From Escherichia coli (GTDB taxonomy: Bacteria > Pseudomonadota > Gammaproteobacteria > Enterobacterales > Enterobacteriaceae): a DNA stretch of 64,000 nt. A program made the position numbers and the translations under genes. Positions 50,067 through 62,982 of the stretch are shown here, one piece after another. The notes under the pieces are model-generated. The model did not search any database and was not told the DNA's origin. It worked only from the letters and a program-made list of their open reading frames with translations. The stretch lies in NCBI RefSeq assembly GCF_048403405.1, contig NZ_CP183129.1. One strand, written 5' to 3'. Numbering within the stretch: the first letter of the stretch is position 1; each line of letters starts with the position of its first letter.

Positions 50067-50083
50067 TTGGTGGGTCGTGCAGG
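50067..50083 (-). pseudogene. 17-nt 3'-terminal fragment of tRNA-Lys (TCCTGCACGACCCACCA) abutting the terminator
   Basis: Exact match to the 3' end of the intact tRNA-Lys copies; 5' part replaced by unrelated sequence. Confidence 0.6.
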
Positions 50084-50165
50084 ATGACTCGCTTCGCTCG
50101 CCCTACGGGCCGTTGCTGGCGCAACGTTATCCTTCACGCTTAACATCTGAGTTTGATGTTAAAAT

Positions 50166-50241
50166 TGGTGGGTCGTGCAGGATTCGAACCTGCGACCAAT
50201 TGATTAAAAGTCAACTGCTCTACCAACTGAGCTAACGACCC
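50166..50241 (-). tRNA. tRNA-Lys (anticodon UUU)
   Basis: Minus-strand 76-nt sequence GGGTCGTTAGCTCAGTTGGTAGAGCAGTTGACTTTTAATCAATTGGTCGCAGGTTCGAATCCTGCACGACCCACCA; fifth gene in transcription order. Confidence 0.95.
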
Positions 50242-50244
50242 GAG

Positions 50245-50320
50245 TGGTGGGTGATGACGGGATCGAACCGCCGACCCCCTCCTTGTAAGGGAGGTGCTCT
50301 CCCAGCTGAGCTAATCACCC
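50245..50320 (-). tRNA. tRNA-Val (anticodon UAC)
   Basis: Minus-strand GGGTGATTAGCTCAGCTGGGAGAGCACCTCCCTTACAAGGAGGGGGTCGGCGGTTCGATCCCGTCATCACCCACCA. Confidence 0.95.
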
Positions 50321-50371
50321 GATACTGCGCTGGATACTACAAACTACTTCCACCGAACCCACCGTAATTAG

Positions 50372-50447
50372 TGGTGGGTCGTGCAGGATTCGAACCTGCG
50401 ACCAATTGATTAAAAGTCAACTGCTCTACCAACTGAGCTAACGACCC
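50372..50447 (-). tRNA. tRNA-Lys (anticodon UUU)
   Basis: Identical to the other tRNA-Lys copies. Confidence 0.95.
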
Positions 50448-50449
50448 GG

Positions 50450-50525
50450 TGGTGGGTGATGACGGGATCGAACCGCCGACCCCCTCCTTGTAAGGGAGGT
50501 GCTCTCCCAGCTGAGCTAATCACCC
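50450..50525 (-). tRNA. tRNA-Val (anticodon UAC)
   Basis: Identical to the other tRNA-Val copy. Confidence 0.95.
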
Positions 50526-50560
50526 GATACTACGCTGGATACTACAACTAACTAGGTTAG

Positions 50561-50636
50561 TGGTGGGTCGTGCAGGATTCGAACCTGCGACCAATTGATT
50601 AAAAGTCAACTGCTCTACCAACTGAGCTAACGACCC
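50561..50636 (-). tRNA. tRNA-Lys (anticodon UUU); first gene of the array
   Basis: Identical to the other tRNA-Lys copies; promoter expected at about 50640-50750. Confidence 0.95.
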
Positions 50637-50800: not shown

Positions 50801-51592
50801 TTACATCGCGTTCAGACGTTTTTGTGCCTGTTTAGCGCCATCAGTACCAGGGTATTTACTGATAACCTGCTGGTATACGGCTTTCGCTTTTGCGGTGTCA
50901 CCTTTGTCCTGCATGATGACACCGACTTTAAACATCGCATCTGCAGCCTTTGGCGACTTCGGATAGTTTTTTACTACCGAAGCAAAATAGTACGCCGCAT
51001 CATCTTTTTTACCCTTGTTGTAGTTTAACTGACCCAGCCAATAATTGGCGTTTGGCAGGTAAGTTGAATCAGGGTAATTTTTGATGAAATTCTGAAATGC
51101 CACCATTGCGTCATCCTGGCGGGATTTATCCTGCACCAGCGCAATTGCTGCATTGTAATCCGTGTTTGCATCGCCGCTTTTCACCGGCGCGCCAGCATTC
51201 GCAGTACCAGCATCAGCTGTCGGCGTCGTTGATGCCGCCGCACCGCTTTGATCACCGCTGGTTGATTGCGCCGCTGCACCACCGCTGCTGAGGCTATCGA
51301 TCTGCAACAGGATCTGCTTTTGCCGCTCCACGACCTGATTCAGTTGATACTGATTTTCCTGAATCTGACCACGCAGGGAATCAATATCGGATTGATTATC
51401 AGAGAGTTGTTGCTGGAGTTGGGTTAAAAGCTGGCTGTGAGCATTTGAAATACGCTCAAGTTGAGTGACGCGGTCTTCGACCGAGCCTGAGCCGACACTA
51501 CTGATTGGTGCCTGAGCAAAAGCGGCCCAGGGGGCCGCTATACCAACCAGTAACGACAGACTCAATAGTTGATGTCTGAAGTTACTGCTCAT
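50801..51592 (-). CDS. cpoB: Cell division coordinator CpoB (YbgF), TPR protein
   Basis: 263 aa with signal peptide, coiled-coil and C-terminal TPR region. Confidence 0.94.
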   Translation of the reverse strand: MSSNFRHQLLSLSLLVGIAAPWAAFAQAPISSVGSGSVEDRVTQLERISNAHSQLLTQLQQQLSDNQSDIDSLRGQIQENQYQLNQVVERQKQILLQIDSLSSGGAAAQSTSGDQSGAAASTTPTADAGTANAGAPVKSGDANTDYNAAIALVQDKSRQDDAMVAFQNFIKNYPDSTYLPNANYWLGQLNYNKGKKDDAAYYFASVVKNYPKSPKAADAMFKVGVIMQDKGDTAKAKAVYQQVISKYPGTDGAKQAQKRLNAM

Positions 51593-51601
51593 GCAATTCT
51601 C

Positions 51602-52147
<546 letters not shown>

Positions 52148-57008: not shown

Positions 57009-58148
57009 TTAGTACAGAGAGTGGGTGTTACGTTCAATATCTTCTTTGGTGATACGACCGAACATTTTCCAGTAACACCAGGCGGTGTAGAGCAGAATGA
57101 TCGGTACCAGAACCACCGCAACCCAGGTCATGACGTTAAGCGTCAGCTGGCTGGAAGTTGCATCCCACATTGTCAGACTTGCGTTCATCATGGTGCTGGA
57201 CGGCATCACAAACGGGAACATTGCGATACCGGCTGTCAGGATGATGCAGGCCAGCGTCAGGGAGGAGAACACAAACGCCCACGCGGCTTTATCCATACGT
57301 GCAGTCAGGATGGTCAGCAGCGGCAGAACCACACCCAGTGCCGGAATAGCCCACAGAATTGGCGTGTTGTTGAAGTTAACCAGCCATGCGCCAGCTTCAC
57401 GAACCACTTCTTTATTCAGTGGGTTAGAGGCTGCGTAATGGTCCATTGTCGATTTCACGACATAACCATCGATACCGTACATCACCCATACGCCAGCCAG
57501 TGCGAAACAGACCAGTGTCACCAGTGCCGCCACCTGAGCCGTTGCACGGGTACGCAGGTGCAGTTCGCCCACGGTACGCATTTGCAGATAGGTTGCGCCC
57601 TGAGTAATGATCATCCCTACGCTCACCACGCCTGCCAGCAGGCCGAACGGGTTAAGCAGCTGGAAGAAGTTACCGGTGTAGTACAGACGCAGATATTCAT
57701 CAACGTTGAACGGTACGCCCTGCAACAGGTTACCGAACGCTACACCAATCACCAGCGGCGGAACGAAGCTACCAATGAAGATGCCCCAGTCCCACATGTT
57801 ACGCCAGCGGGTTTCTTCAATCTTGGAGCGGTAGTCAAAACCGACCGGACGGAAGAACAAAGACGCCAGCACGAGGATCATCGCCACATAGAATCCGGAG
57901 AACGCAGCGGCATAGACCATCGGCCAGGCAGCAAACAGAGCGCCGCCCGCGGTGATAAGCCAAACCTGGTTACCGTCCCAGTGTGGTGCGATGGAGTTAA
58001 TCATAATTCGACGCTCGGTGTCGTTACGACCGAGGAAACGGGTGAGCATGCCCACCCCCATGTCGAAACCGTCAGTGACTGCAAAACCAATCAGCAGAAC
58101 GCCAACCAGCAGCCACCAGATAAAACGCAATACTTCATAATCGATCAT
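57009..58148 (-). CDS. cydB: Cytochrome bd-I ubiquinol oxidase subunit II
   Basis: 379-aa polytopic ORF. Confidence 0.96.
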   Translation of the reverse strand: MIDYEVLRFIWWLLVGVLLIGFAVTDGFDMGVGMLTRFLGRNDTERRIMINSIAPHWDGNQVWLITAGGALFAAWPMVYAAAFSGFYVAMILVLASLFFRPVGFDYRSKIEETRWRNMWDWGIFIGSFVPPLVIGVAFGNLLQGVPFNVDEYLRLYYTGNFFQLLNPFGLLAGVVSVGMIITQGATYLQMRTVGELHLRTRATAQVAALVTLVCFALAGVWVMYGIDGYVVKSTMDHYAASNPLNKEVVREAGAWLVNFNNTPILWAIPALGVVLPLLTILTARMDKAAWAFVFSSLTLACIILTAGIAMFPFVMPSSTMMNASLTMWDATSSQLTLNVMTWVAVVLVPIILLYTAWCYWKMFGRITKEDIERNTHSLY

Positions 58149-58163
58149 TTGACGACTCCTGTC

Positions 58164-59732
58164 TTAGCGTGCCGGCTGAGTAGTCGTGGAAGACTGCTCA
58201 AAGTGATAGCGACCGGTTTTCAGGCTGCTTGGGCCGAGGCGTGCAAACTTGAACATTAAGAACAATTCTGCCACCAGGAACAGGGTATACAGGCCGCAAA
58301 TCAGCACCATTGAGAAGATGAGATCGCCTGCGGTCAGTGACGAGTTCGCCACAGCTGTCGGCAGCACTTCACCGATAGCCCACGGTTGGCGGCCATATTC
58401 AGCCACGAACCAGCCCGCTTCTACAGCAATCCACGGCAGCGGAATACCATACAGCGCGGCGCGCAGCAGCCATTTTTTCTCGCCAATGCGGTTGCGGATG
58501 ACACTCCAGAAAGAGAGCGCGATGATTGCCAGCAGCAGGAAGCCACACGCCACCATGATACGGAACGCGAAGTACAGCGGCGCTACACGCGGAATGGAGT
58601 CTTTGGTTGCCTGTTGAATCTGCGCTTCAGTCGCATCAGCCACGTTTGGCGTATAGCGTTTCAGCAGCAGACCGTAACCGAGGTCTTTCTTCATGCTATT
58701 GAACTGGTCACGAACCGCCTGGTCGGTAGAACCAGAACGCAGTTGTTCGAGCAGAGAGTACGCCTTCATCCCGTTACGAATGCGTTCTTCATGCTGCACC
58801 ATCAGTTCTTTCAGGCCGATAACTGGAGTATCCACGGAACGCGTTGCAATGATGCCCAGCGCGTAAGGGATCTGGATCGCAAATTTGTTCGTCTCCTCTT
58901 CCTGATCAGGAATGCCGAACAGAGTAAAGGCAGCAGGCGCAGGTTGCGTTTCCCACTCGGCTTCAATAGCAGCCAGTTTGGTTTTCTGCACGTCGCCCAT
59001 TTCGTAACCAGATTCATCACCCAGAACAATAACAGACAGAACGGCAGCCATACCGAAGCTGGCAGCGATAGCAAAGGAGCGTTTAGCGAAGGCGAAGTCA
59101 CGACCTTTCAGCATATACCATGCGCTGATACCGAGGATGAACATCGCGCCAGTCACATAACCAGACGCTACAGTGTGAACGAATTTCACCTGAGCAACCG
59201 GGTTAAGCACCAGCTCGGAGAAGCTCACCATCTCCATACGCATAGTTTCAAAGTTGAAATCGGACGCGATTGGGTTTTGCATCCAGCCGTTCGCAACCAG
59301 AATCCACAGTGCGGACAGGTTTGAACCGAGCGCCACCAGCCAGGTGACACACATATGCTGAACTTTACCCAGACGATCCCAACCGAAGAAGAACAGACCT
59401 ACAAAGGTGGATTCGAGGAAGAAGGCCATCAGACCTTCGATTGCCAGCGGCGCACCGAAGATATCCCCTACATAGTGGGAATAGTAAGACCAGTTAGTCC
59501 CGAACTGGAACTCCATAGTCAGACCGGTAGCCACACCCAGAGCGAAGTTGATACCAAACAACTTGCCCCAGAACTTGGTCATATCTTTATAAATCTGTTT
59601 GCCGGAAAGGACGTAGACCGTTTCCATAATGGCCAGCAGGAACGCCATACCGAGCGTCAGTGGCACAAAAAGGAAGTGGTACATCGCGGTCAAGGCAAAC
59701 TGTAAGCGCGACAGTTCGACTATATCTAACAT
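58164..59732 (-). CDS. cydA: Cytochrome bd-I ubiquinol oxidase subunit I
   Basis: ORF 58164-59735; start at [12 protein letters not shown] (59732), 522 aa. Confidence 0.96.
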
Positions 59733-60017
59733 CATGACTCCTTGCTCATCGCATGAAGACTCCGAGAGTGAACCCCGTTAGAAAGGGTCACACGCATGCC
59801 CCAATACAAAATTATTTGCTCGCCTCTATCGTTGCCATTTCATCAAAAGAGGAAAAGACAATGATAAAAAAGTTACAAATATGTTAATGAATAAACCAAA
59901 TTGATCCCGTAATTATATTACGCCGCAAAATCCTTACAATAAACAGGTTTTTATTGAGCAAATTTGCATTTTTCGACAGTGATCAATTTATAGCGAAATT
60001 GTCACGATCTCACCAAT

Positions 60018-60031
60018 TTGATCTACGACAA
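60018..60031 (-). promoter_or_regulatory. FNR/CRP-family half-consensus box (TTGATCTACGACAA) in the cydAB control region
   Basis: Matches the TTGAT half of TTGAT-N4-ATCAA; about 285 bp upstream of cydA. Confidence 0.4.
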
Positions 60032-60069
60032 TTTATCGTGTTTTGCAGATTTTTTTCAAGAATTAAAAA

Positions 60070-60083
60070 TTGATTTATATCAA
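60070..60083 (-). promoter_or_regulatory. Perfect FNR consensus box TTGATTTATATCAA in the cydAB control region
   Basis: Exact TTGAT-N4-ATCAA; cydAB is known to be FNR/ArcA controlled with a long leader. Confidence 0.6.
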
Positions 60084-60537
60084 AACCAACCAAATATGTT
60101 AATTATGTATAAACCATAGATCATTGGTGATTTTATTGTTAATTTATTGTGAAATATTTATGCAACACAATTATTACAATGAAAAGGTATAGATAAAAAA
60201 CCAGTGTTTTATTTAACAGAACCGCCTTATCCACTTTTTATAATACCAATTGATTAGATTAGCCAATTTGTTGCTATTTTACATAACATATTTTTATCAA
60301 AGTTAATTGATTGTTGCGTTTATGAGCACCGGCCGTAAGCCCGTTATGTTATTGTTTCATTAGTAATAATCACTTAAATGTATCGATGAAACAGGTATGA
60401 CTTAGCGGGAGTGATTGTTTCTGAGTGAACAGAGACCACTTTCGCCTGATAAATGAAAAATGAGCGATTTTTGCAAGTTAGTTTTTCTATAGCCGAGTAC
60501 GCTCAGCGCCTCGCTTGATTACAATGAGGTTGCTGCT

Positions 60538-61482
60538 ATGAGTCCTGATAATATCAGTTCTGCTGTCAATCGCTTCTCAGGTTGGCCATCTAATGATCCT
60601 CTAAAAACAGATAAAGAATCAATGACATCACCCATGACTGTGCAGGTAATAAAGATGATTGCCGCCATCCTTGACCCACATCGGATAGTCGTTGGAATCG
60701 ATACACTTTATACAACGCAGCGCGAAACATTTACCTCAGAGAGTCAACAGCTCATTGAATCAGCATTGCAAACACTTCATGTGATGAATTTAAATAACCT
60801 GGAAACAAATCTCGATGAGGAAGGTCACTATCTGGCTTTTGGATATAACGTTGACACTCCTGACAGAATAACCGTTTCTGCTTATAATGAAAAAAAGCCT
60901 GGCTGCTATGGCCAATGTCTTTTAATACAGGATGACGAAACAGACTTATTTAACCTGATAAAAGTTAAAATTTTTGAAGCCAGGCATAATTATGTCGCTC
61001 AATTGATGAGCGATCCGGAATTTATGTTCAAATTTAGTTATAGCGCTCAACAAAATAGATTAGAACCTCATCTTCTGGTTCCCACTTATTTCCCTCTAAA
61101 AACAAACGAACCGGTTACGCAAGAGGATGTACTGTTACTTTATCGTTTCTTTAAAATGGATGGTGATTTTAATATATTAACATCAGATGAATACATGAGT
61201 ATCATGACACCTCTGATGAAGTGTGAGCGCAGCATCCACGACCACAACAGGTATGTGACGGGCAAAGATACCCTTCTTCTGGACTATCCTCCTTCTGGTA
61301 ACCAGATATATTTCCATATTTTTCCTGACGAATCAGCAACACTAGTCCTTTATTTTTCAAACAATGACATTGAATGTTTCGTCTTTGAAAGAGATATTCC
61401 GAGCCAGTATCGCTTTTTCAAAATGTTTACCAATCTGGCACTGGTTATTGATCAGTTAACCGATGCCAATCAAATACTTTAA
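60538..61482 (+). CDS. Hypothetical protein, 314 aa, no family recognised (AT-rich islet ORF-A)
   Basis: Intact ORF with GAGG 8 nt upstream of ATG; Ser/Thr/Pro-rich N-terminus without signal peptide; codon usage AT-skewed. Confidence 0.6.
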   Translation: MSPDNISSAVNRFSGWPSNDPLKTDKESMTSPMTVQVIKMIAAILDPHRIVVGIDTLYTTQRETFTSESQQLIESALQTLHVMNLNNLETNLDEEGHYLAFGYNVDTPDRITVSAYNEKKPGCYGQCLLIQDDETDLFNLIKVKIFEARHNYVAQLMSDPEFMFKFSYSAQQNRLEPHLLVPTYFPLKTNEPVTQEDVLLLYRFFKMDGDFNILTSDEYMSIMTPLMKCERSIHDHNRYVTGKDTLLLDYPPSGNQIYFHIFPDESATLVLYFSNNDIECFVFERDIPSQYRFFKMFTNLALVIDQLTDANQIL

Positions 61483-61562
61483 TTTTTATATATTCCCTGT
61501 GGCAAATATTGCTAAACAATGCCCGGGGATTAATTTTTATTACTCACGGAAAGATTTAAATA

Positions 61563-61985
61563 ATGATCCCATCTCAAATCTCTTTCAACACCCTTCCTGT
61601 CAATGCAACATACGCTTCAGAGACAACAGTTGACACACAAAAATTCTCTGACATCCTCTACTCAGCGGGGTGTTCCCTAAAGGATCTGGCTTATTTGAGC
61701 AGATGTCTGGCATCAATACATCCGACTATCGCCAAAAACATTTATGAAACAGAAAATCTCAGCGATCAAAAATTACTACATATTGATTGCCGTAGTACAA
61801 ATGAAATCAAGATAAATATCTTTTTTGGTCAACAACGAGAAGGATTAATTGAAATTAGTTCTGACACAGTCATTTTTTCGATACTGTCTTCATTGATTGA
61901 CTCCACCATTTCTAAATTTCAACACCAAAACCCCGTTAACGGTTCTGTAAATCCTGACCTATTGTATGAGGATTATACTGATTAA
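61563..61985 (+). CDS. Hypothetical small acidic protein, 140 aa, no family recognised (AT-rich islet ORF-B)
   Basis: Intact ORF 80 bp downstream of ORF-A, same strand; about 17 acidic versus 9 basic residues; Ser/Thr-rich N-terminus. Confidence 0.55.
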   Translation: MIPSQISFNTLPVNATYASETTVDTQKFSDILYSAGCSLKDLAYLSRCLASIHPTIAKNIYETENLSDQKLLHIDCRSTNEIKINIFFGQQREGLIEISSDTVIFSILSSLIDSTISKFQHQNPVNGSVNPDLLYEDYTD

Positions 61986-62532
61986 ATCCCTCCTGTCGCG
62001 AAAAATGGCCTGCGTTATTGCCAGACGTAATAAAACTTTTGATTAACGTTTCTCGTACTGGTAGCACCTTCATGTACTTTTCTTTTTTACGAAAAATCAA
62101 AAGAGCTAACAAAGGTCATAATTCGCATGAATCATTAATTATTTGTTATTTTCAACATTATTTTTACATTAAGCAGAGATGAATTGCAGTGAAATTCGAC
62201 TTAACTTTTATGAAATGCATTTACTCATGGCTAAAGCCACGTCACAAAAATGCAAATTAGAAGTAGATCACAAATATCTCAATACATCAAATCAAGTTAA
62301 TTTTAAAAATTTAATATTCATGACATTAGTTGACATAACACACTGAATTATAATGAGAATTTGAAAACACACTTTAAACAATCATTTCCCGAAAGACATT
62401 TTGAAAATAGATCAATTGCAACATTACGGTCAGATAAAGACACTCCTGTGATATTAAACCTGTGCCGTTATGAACGGCCATAAATACGACGTGTGTAACT
62501 TATTTTACTCTCTGTCTTACAAAGGATTACCC

Positions 62533-62982
62533 ATGAAGAAAGCAACACTTGTGATTGGCGTTATTGGCGCGGACTGCCATGCAGTAGGCAATAAAGTTCT
62601 GGACCGCGTTTTTAGCAACCATGGCTTCAGAGTCATTAATCTGGGCGTAATGGTCAGCCAGGACGAATATATTGATGCTGCCATTGAAACTGGTGCTGAC
62701 GCGATTGTCGTCTCCTCTATCTATGGGCATGGCGATATCGATTGTCTGGGCATGCGCGAACGCTGCATTGAGCGTGGGCTGGGTAACATCCTGCTCTATG
62801 TGGGCGGTAACCTGGTGGTCGGAAAACATGACTTCGCTGACGTGGAAACCAAGTTCAAAGAGATGGGATTTGATCGCGTCTTTGCCCCAAGTCATGACTT
62901 AGAAGATGTTTGTCAGCTGATGGCCCACGATATCAACCAACGTCATGACGTTGATACTCGCATTCTTGAAGAGGCAATCTGA
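62533..62982 (+). CDS. glmS: Glutamate mutase sigma (S) subunit / methylaspartate mutase S chain, B12-binding
   Basis: ORF 62470-62982; start at [21 protein letters not shown] (62533) with AAGGA upstream; DxHxxG cobalamin-binding motif (DCHAVG); strongly resembles clostridial MutS/GlmS. Symbol refers to glutamate mutase, not glucosamine-6-phosphate synthase. Confidence 0.85.

Follow-up and report, generated by a model that had tools for sequence, protein, structure and literature searches.

What controls the glutamate mutase operon of Escherichia coli, and why is the gap in front of it so long? The operon begins with glmS and belongs to a cluster for a B12-dependent pathway leading from glutamate to mesaconate and citramalate. 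In the 64-kb stretch of E. coli chromosome analysed here (the window; 100% identical to strain TUM14771), glmS is preceded by 547 bp (61986-62532) that begin after the TAA stop of a 140-aa open reading frame (ORF) and end before the glmS ATG at 62533. This methylaspartate (mesaconate) pathway island has already been described in O157:H7 by Kronen and Berg; theirs is the only dedicated study, and they found no condition, among the many tried, that switched the cluster on in O157:H7 (PMC4682846). It is present in about one in five E. coli genomes, including most O157:H7, and in many opportunistic Enterobacterales. The spacer itself is found in 1135 of 5426 complete E. coli genomes (~21%) and is unannotated in every one. 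An earlier note, made from the letters alone, described the gap as a long AT-rich leader upstream of the glutamate mutase operon that could hold a regulator binding site or a structured RNA element. The gap is indeed AT-rich (28-34% GC, compared with ~50-55% in the flanking genes), and the genes downstream are those of glutamate mutase: glmS, glmL and glmE, followed by the methylaspartate ammonia-lyase gene (mal).

We conclude, with a probability of about 0.6, that the gap contains an activator-dependent catabolic promoter-operator for the glm operon, ordinary in kind and previously undescribed. In this model the operon (glmS-glmL-glmE-mal-...-cobO) would be transcribed from a weak sigma70 promoter, TTGCAA-17 bp-GACACT, at 62416-62444. 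The poor -10 implies that the promoter needs help from an activator. An operator of ~45 bp (62376-62418), with TGAAAATAGATCAATTG as its core, would abut the -35; this operator is most likely bound by the GcvA/DsdC-like LysR-type transcriptional regulator (LTTR) that the cluster encodes, WP_001214258.1, which would recruit RNA polymerase in the presence of an inducer. A CRP-like site at 62254-62275 probably adds catabolite control, and the AT-rich surroundings probably attract H-NS. Together, the need for an activator, CRP and H-NS would keep the pathway silent in ordinary culture. The failure to detect expression in O157:H7 (PMC4682846) fits an activator-dependent, silenced promoter. With the promoter, operator and likely regulator located, the silence of the cluster and the question of its inducer become directly testable. 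The elements concerned are as follows.

62254-62275, unstranded: CRP-like site AAATTAGAAGTAGATCACAAAT, with half-sites TTAGA (62257-62261) and TCACA (62268-62272) and a GATC inside.

62376-62399, unstranded: candidate operator upstream half AAACAATCATTTCCCGAAAGACAT, at about -75 to -52 (alignments, information content).

62402-62418, unstranded: invariant 17-mer TGAAAATAGATCAATTG, adjoining the -35; proposed LysR-type regulator site (motif search).

62416-62421, plus strand: predicted -35, TTGCAA; TTG[C/T]NN in 43 of 44 loci and TTGAAA in one.

62439-62444, plus strand: predicted weak -10, GACACT, exactly 17 bp 3' of the -35.

62452-62457, plus strand: TATTAA box, +2 to +7 of the predicted transcript; Enterobacteriaceae only, with TG 5' of the box in E. 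coli.

62522-62535, plus strand: Shine-Dalgarno sequence AAGGA (62522-62526) and the glmS ATG at 62533 (gene calls, alignments).

Which parts of the spacer are conserved? We obtained 80 loci encoding relatives of GlmS and mapped their genes. A BLAST comparison of the spacer with all of them confines conservation beyond Escherichia to spacer positions ~349-472. The 17-mer TGAAAATAGATCAATTG occurs without a mismatch 5' of glmS in all 36 Enterobacteriaceae loci, which represent at least 10 genera, although the flanking sequences cannot be aligned. Exact copies are present in loci L002-L035, L037, L040 and L072, and the genera include Escherichia, Klebsiella, Citrobacter, Salmonella, Enterobacter, Lelliottia, Pluralibacter, Buttiauxella, Pseudescherichia and Raoultella. 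Budvicia, Yersinia and the loci L036 and L039 have one or two mismatches; Morganella, Hafnia and the pair formed by Enterobacter sp. ENT03 and Yokenella retain only the core ATCAATTG. Inside the 17-mer lies a 13-bp T-N11-A dyad, TGA-N7-TCA (TGA-AAATAGA-TCA, 62402-62414), invariant in Enterobacteriaceae and represented in other lineages by the variants TGAcAATAaATCA, TtACTTTATATCA and TcAGATTTTATCA. As a search pattern the operator motif reads TGAnAATAnATCAATTG; no further copy lies within three mismatches in the window or the E. coli cluster. An LTTR site is defined as a 13-bp T-N11-A with imperfect dyad symmetry (PMC11495319), and the dyad has this form. The upstream half of the operator keeps a TTTy-N3-4-AAGA pattern across Enterobacterales, less strictly than the 17-mer, and has no clear T-N11-A.

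Variation within the species tells the same region apart. In an alignment of six sequences of the E. coli clade, the share of variable columns is 22-24% 5' of 62377 but only ~4% in 62377-62532. These data bear on a sceptical view of the locus: that the spacer is non-functional, horizontally acquired AT-rich DNA silenced by H-NS, the operon cryptic or decaying, and the conserved blocks inherited without current function. The low GC content, the presence of the cluster in just ~21% of E. coli genomes and the fact that expression in O157:H7 was never detected all favour it; AT-richness relative to the genome and an accessory distribution are both expected of H-NS-silenced acquired DNA, and both are found here. 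On the other hand, the invariance of the 17-mer across at least 10 genera despite flanks diverged beyond alignment, the roughly five-fold fall in polymorphism within E. coli and the operon genes, all of which are intact in the window, indicate ongoing purifying selection. We regard decay as improbable.

The promoter assignment comes from a comparison of 44 Enterobacterales loci, in which a weight-matrix scan anchored on the operator motif was run on both strands. The arrangement TTGnnn-17-NANANT, with an exact 17-bp spacer, is present in 44 of 44 loci and is the sole conserved promoter-like configuration on either strand. Its score has a median of 4.7 and a minimum of 3.0; the next best position scores below 0. 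The -10 takes the form [G/C]A[C/A/T]A[C/T]T (the hexamers seen are GACACT, GAAACT, CACATT, CACACT, CATATT and CATCGT), with an invariant A at -11 and an invariant T at -7, and the sequences between the two hexamers differ from locus to locus. Thus 62416-62444 has the hexamers, the 17-bp spacing and the two critical bases of a sigma70 promoter, all conserved in position. The predicted start lies near 62451 (62450-62452), which would give an unstructured 5' untranslated region (5'UTR) of ~82 nt.

Other sigma factors were also considered. A sigma54 promoter was rejected: TTGCW is present, but the GG 10 nt upstream is lacking. Comparison by eye with the consensus sequences of sigma32, sigma28 and sigma24 gave no fit. 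One locus, that of Citrobacter amalonaticus S646 (L014, ~5780-5990), has ~110 bp extra between promoter and glmS, placing ATCAATTG at -232 instead of ~-120, which suggests a small insertion in the 5'UTR.

A second conserved element complicates the placement of the -10. Of 29 unique sequences, 26 have the TATTAA box of 62452-62457 (TATTAA or CATTAA) at 33 bp from ATCAATTG, and the other three have a 7-nt variant box at 32 bp. The box could be an alternative -10, or else an initial-transcribed or activation-site element. If TATTAA were the -10 (an extended TGaTATTAA in E. coli), transcription would start at ~62464, with TGA-N7-TCA as the LysR regulatory site and an activation site over GACACTCC. 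The fixed distance in Enterobacteriaceae and the TG preceding the box in Escherichia speak for this arrangement. So does the geometry: the centre of the dyad would lie at ~-56, closer to the classical LTTR position than the ~-43 calculated for a start at 62451, and a small hairpin would sit exactly at the 5' end of the mRNA. Yet TATTAA lacks the critical T at -7, no -35-like hexamer is found 16-18 bp 5' of it, and Yersinia, Morganella, Hafnia, Budvicia and ENT03 all lack the box and keep TTGnnn-17-NANANT. We consider this alternative unlikely, both for the start site and for the placing of the regulatory and activation sites.

What protein would bind the operator? WP_001214258.1 contains the domains HTH_1 and LysR_substrate. 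GcvA/DsdC is the nearest subfamily, though the protein scores below the cut-offs for both. Its gene stays with the cluster in E. coli, Yersinia, ENT03/Yokenella and Enterobacter, also where the cluster occupies another chromosomal site, as it does in Enterobacter. All orthologues with at least ~54% identity (57% in Yokenella) come from taxa that carry the cluster, and elsewhere identity is at most 47%. The LTTR gene is thus found together with its presumed target operon, as at LTTR promoters.

The best comparative evidence tying the motif to this regulator comes from ENT03. There the regulator gene is divergent from an operon of btuC, btuD, TonB-receptor and btuF-like genes that lies directly 5' of glmS (L052, 8-5702; in Yokenella, L053). 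In the divergent spacer between the regulator gene and btuC the motif recurs as CAAGTTATCTTCATTTTTTTTCAATTGCC; a -10-like TATATA follows 17 bp after its TTG, mirroring the -35/-10 geometry of the copy found 5' of glmS in that genome. LTTRs classically have this arrangement, and B12 uptake in ENT03 and Yokenella may be under the same protein regulator; a scan at Rfam gathering thresholds found no cobalamin riboswitch at the ENT03 btu-like operon. Gene order differs again in Yersinia spp. (L041-L047, 2400-5500), where the regulator gene, fumD and cobO lie 5' of glmS in inverted order; uroporphyrinogen-III methyltransferase-like and GHMP-kinase genes stand between the regulator gene and glmS and may be corrin-related accessories of the cluster.

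The architecture resembles that of known LTTR promoters such as BenM/benA, CbnR/cbnA and GcvA/gcvT. It shares with them a 13-bp T-N11-A with short arms (TGA-N7-TCA here, ATAC-N7-GTAT for BenM), a conserved region of ~45-70 bp reaching up to the -35, a weak core promoter and a pathway-specific LTTR gene that travels with its target cluster, divergently and with a second motif copy in ENT03/Yokenella. The clostridial mesaconate-pathway clusters (Kronen and Berg 2015, Fig. 4) encode the same GlmS, GlmE, GlmL and Mal proteins and a mesaconase, and they too have a dedicated regulator. Theirs is of the GntR type; the enterobacterial clusters have a LysR-type regulator and the single-polypeptide FumD, and they differ further in their accessories, namely AtuA/DUF1446, DUF4387, a GltP-like transporter and CobO.

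The second candidate site lies further upstream. In the 64-kb window, AAATTAGAAGTAGATCACAAAT is the best match to the 22-bp CRP consensus (16/22), one half-site being poor (TTAGA-N6-TCACA). In most Enterobacteriaceae a CRP-like site is found 142-149 bp (mostly 144-146) 5' of ATCAATTG, and a perfect TGTGA-N6-TCACA is present in addition in ENT03 and Yokenella. The group of Yersinia, Morganella, Budvicia and Hafnia has a GATCACA element, mostly 175-177 bp (156-177 overall) upstream. The distance to the operator therefore differs between clades by ~31 bp, near three helical turns. Rigid spacing that changes by close to whole turns implies a protein-DNA architecture rather than RNA helices. A search of both strands beside the CRP-like site found no conserved promoter. 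The site recalls those of the promoters co-activated by cAMP-CRP, such as araBAD, malK and acs: it has a TCACA half-site with consensus flank (AGATCACAAAT), it stands at a fixed, helically phased distance from a specific operator, and the operon is a catabolic one for an alternative carbon and nitrogen source.

One further element between the two sites is weakly conserved.

62337-62346, unstranded: AAC-N4-TGA(T), at ~-105 (alignment conservation line).

Here FNR was considered and rejected, an FNR-like sequence (TTGAT-N4-ATGAA) being found only in the Citrobacter freundii group. At the invariant block FNR was rejected too, the sequence TTGA-N7-TCAA being one base too long. Comparison with the consensus sequences of Fur, Cra, ArgR, IHF, PdhR and Lrp gave no convincing fit.

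Several observations weigh against the promoter-operator reading. GACACT agrees with TATAAT at just three of six positions, a very poor -10, and the conserved TATTAA could be the -10 in its place. The strongest dyad abuts the -35; its centre, at ~-43, comes closer to a class II or activation site than to the high-affinity regulatory site that LTTRs such as BenM, CbnR and GcvA classically have at ~-65, alongside activation sites overlapping the -35. Unlike the genes for these regulators, the regulator gene in E. coli and Enterobacter is not divergent from the operon but convergent, at the distal end of the cluster (10 kb away in E. coli), and no autoregulatory copy of the motif was found upstream of it, the regions in these two genera being unrelated. 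Some other regulator, not linked to the cluster, may be the one that uses the invariant motif. The CRP-like site is open to similar objections. CRP sites are centred at -41.5 in class II promoters and between -61.5 and -93.5 in class I promoters; with respect to the predicted start, the centre here (62264.5) is at ~-186.5. The left half-site (TTAGA or TAAGA) is poor, no conserved promoter adjoins the site, and it is missing in Klebsiella, all of which sets it apart from araBAD, malK and acs. Finally, a literature search for start sites, expression and regulation, covering ECs/Z locus tags, transcriptomes of enterohaemorrhagic E. coli and LysR, found nothing beyond Kronen and Berg 2015.

A bolder extension of the promoter-operator reading is suggested by the Dam sites. 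Exactly two GATC sequences occur in the spacer, one in the CRP-like site (62266-62269) and one in the operator (62410-62413); the latter is invariant in Enterobacteriaceae but not in Yersinia, Morganella or Hafnia. One might imagine an Enterobacterales-wide regulon in which the GcvA-like LysR regulator lets a small-molecule signal govern B12-dependent glutamate catabolism and, in some genera, the uptake of B12 as well, with the GATC pair (mostly 144-146 bp apart) perhaps making it sensitive to Dam in the manner of OxyR at agn43 or Lrp at pap. If so, the switch would be bistable and the cluster expressed in a subpopulation, which could explain why bulk assays miss the pathway. We regard this extension as a long shot.

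Where does this leave the motifs that first drew attention to the gap? The earlier note had pointed to the hexamers TTGACA (62330-62335) and TATAAT (62349-62354), only 13 bp apart, and to the direct repeat TGACAT-N3-TTGACAT (62321-62336). All are present as it gave them.

62321-62354, plus strand: TGACAT-N3-TTGACAT and TTGACA-13 bp-TATAAT; lineage- or strain-specific, probably not the operon promoter.

If these were the promoter or operator of the operon, the 5' leader would be ~175 nt. Both hexamers are perfect consensus sequences, and the pair is unique in the window, with zero expected from 100 shuffles; the repeat likewise occurs once against 0.02 expected. Such rarity proves no function. 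A simple weight-matrix scan of this strain ranks TTGACA-19 bp-GAGAAT first in the spacer (8.7), and a perfect -10 in AT-rich DNA is able to fire weakly by itself. A CRP-like match also overlaps the first TGACAT. But sigma70 requires a spacer of 17 +/- 1 bp, or at most 15-19 bp; 13 bp falls outside this range, and a scan for canonical promoter consensus finds no plus-strand site in the spacer. Nor is the arrangement conserved. In O157:H7, O145, XH990 and Escherichia sp. MOD1 the corresponding bases are TTAACA, TATAAT being a minority allele. The repeat is degraded in MFDS and MOD1 and missing from E. whittamii and Escherichia sp. E1V33, and neither the hexamer pair nor the repeat is found in any other genus aligned. 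The segment is among the most polymorphic of the spacer (22% of columns variable). A promoter at this position is in our view quite improbable; on sequence comparison the motifs are probably incidental features of the strain or lineage. The idea of a regulator site in the gap has fared better than its location, since the conserved candidate sites lie at 62376-62444 and 62254-62275.

The overlapping CRP match, AAATTTAATATTCATGACATTA (62307-62328), is the second best in the window at 15/22. It lies 53 bp, or five helical turns, from the conserved CRP-like site and is not conserved beyond E. coli.

Why, then, is the gap so long? In E. whittamii, Escherichia sp. E1V33, Klebsiella, Citrobacter and Salmonella enterica subsp. 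arizonae, the cluster occupies the same chromosomal place, but cydA and glmS are separated by a single ORF-free spacer of 1.2-1.4 kb that lacks the two orphan ORFs found in the window. Homology of the window to the ancestral region upstream of glmS restarts at 62242. On this comparison, ~60378-62241, comprising both orphan ORFs and the first ~256 bp of the gap, is an E. coli-specific insertion, and the ancestral upstream region of glmS is 62242-62532. The features on either side are as follows.

57009-59735, minus strand: cydB and cydA (gene order).

60538-61482, plus strand: 314-aa ORF, function unannotated (gene order).

61563-61985, plus strand: 140-aa ORF, function unannotated (gene order).

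61986-62241, unstranded: lineage-specific AT-rich DNA, part of the insertion and outside the ancestral glmS control region (locus comparison; 24% of columns vary in E. coli).

62533-62982, plus strand: glmS (gene order).

The description of the gap as a leader is misleading: the predicted 5'UTR is only ~82 nt, and ~256 of the 547 bp come from the insertion. The two orphan ORFs are AT-rich and sit between the cydA control region and the glm promoter. Neither has a match in Pfam, NCBIfam, PADLOC or PHROGs, and a PDB search with the 314-aa ORF was negative as well. One O145 strain has a frameshift in the 140-aa ORF, and the 314-aa ORF occurs in a diverged form in Escherichia sp. MOD1 (50-62% identity). 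A search for transposon-like ends flanking the insertion returned just weak inverted matches of 73-75%. At its left edge, 60397-60420 matches the operator upstream half at 62376-62399 as a 24-nt inverted sequence at 75% (AAACAATCA..CCCG..A.G.CAT); this may be chance or a trace of the insertion's origin.

Small ORFs within the spacer (54-55 aa, 62018-62346) are not conserved in the compared loci. An in-frame ATG at 62470, in the loop of the 5' hairpin, would lengthen GlmS by 21 aa (ORF 62470-62982). Because this ATG lacks both a Shine-Dalgarno sequence and conservation across other genera, we keep the annotated start at 62533.

An operon for a B12-dependent enzyme preceded by a long gap naturally suggests a riboswitch, and the earlier note had raised a structured RNA element as one of two possibilities. 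In that case the conserved blocks would be RNA, either a variant of the cobalamin riboswitch or a new class in a long leader, transcribed from a promoter near the CRP-like site. The B12 dependence of the enzyme, the position of the conserved blocks 5' of the coding region and a lineage-variable hairpin that often follows the TATTAA box are in keeping with this. The Rfam scan that the earlier note had called for corrects the assumption. At gathering thresholds, nothing was found 5' of any glmS in the window and six orthologous loci. The same scan recovered the Moco riboswitch (15128-15272 of the window), the CpoB thermometer, tRNAs and a cobalamin riboswitch (L031, 1268-1442), which shows that the method works. 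A permissive search of 59500-64000 (E-value to 10) returned only eukaryotic snoRNA and miRNA noise, with E > 1. Folding was no more stable than that of shuffled sequences, either for the 547 nt (z = -0.28) or for the predicted 5'UTR (z = -0.11). The consensus structure that RNAalifold derived from 17 orthologous UTRs consisted of three trivial pairs, none supported by a compensatory change. No promoter is conserved 3' of the CRP-like site, and the rigid spacing of the blocks (17 bp, 33 bp and mostly 144-146 bp), shifting by near whole helical turns, is typical of protein-DNA complexes and not of covarying helices. The resemblance to the cobalamin riboswitches (RF00174) of btuB, cob and eut is one of context alone, namely a long spacer preceding an operon for a B12-dependent enzyme; a covariance-model match, a thermodynamic signal and covariation are all absent, and the predicted 5'UTR is short. 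We consider a riboswitch here highly improbable. The gap contains no known or conserved RNA structure; it is best read as a control region at the level of DNA joined to insertion debris.

The cobalamin riboswitch of L031 (Buttiauxella agrestis; minus strand, 99.8 bits) is on the strand opposite to glmS, 4.6 kb 5' of it, and presumably controls a neighbouring B12 gene, not the glm operon. The hairpin in the E. coli sequence is small.

62464-62478, plus strand: hairpin GCCGTT-ATG-AACGGC, near the 5' end of the predicted mRNA (folding).

Counterparts of different sequence occur at the same position in many lineages (mean z of -1.1; z < -1.5 in 12 of 29 sequences); it is missing in C. amalonaticus, Enterobacter and Lelliottia.

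Downstream of glmS the gene order is glmL, glmE, mal, AtuA/DUF1446, DUF4387, the GltP-like transporter, the mesaconase gene fumD and cobO, followed by the convergent LysR-type regulator gene, which adjoins sucD. Elsewhere in the window, the Rfam gathering scan matched, on the minus strand, the Moco riboswitch and the CpoB/ybgF thermometer (51563-51701), and a tRNA array (Lys/Val in the RefSeq annotation) with RtT RNA lies at 50068-50636, also on the minus strand. All of these are expected in this part of the chromosome.

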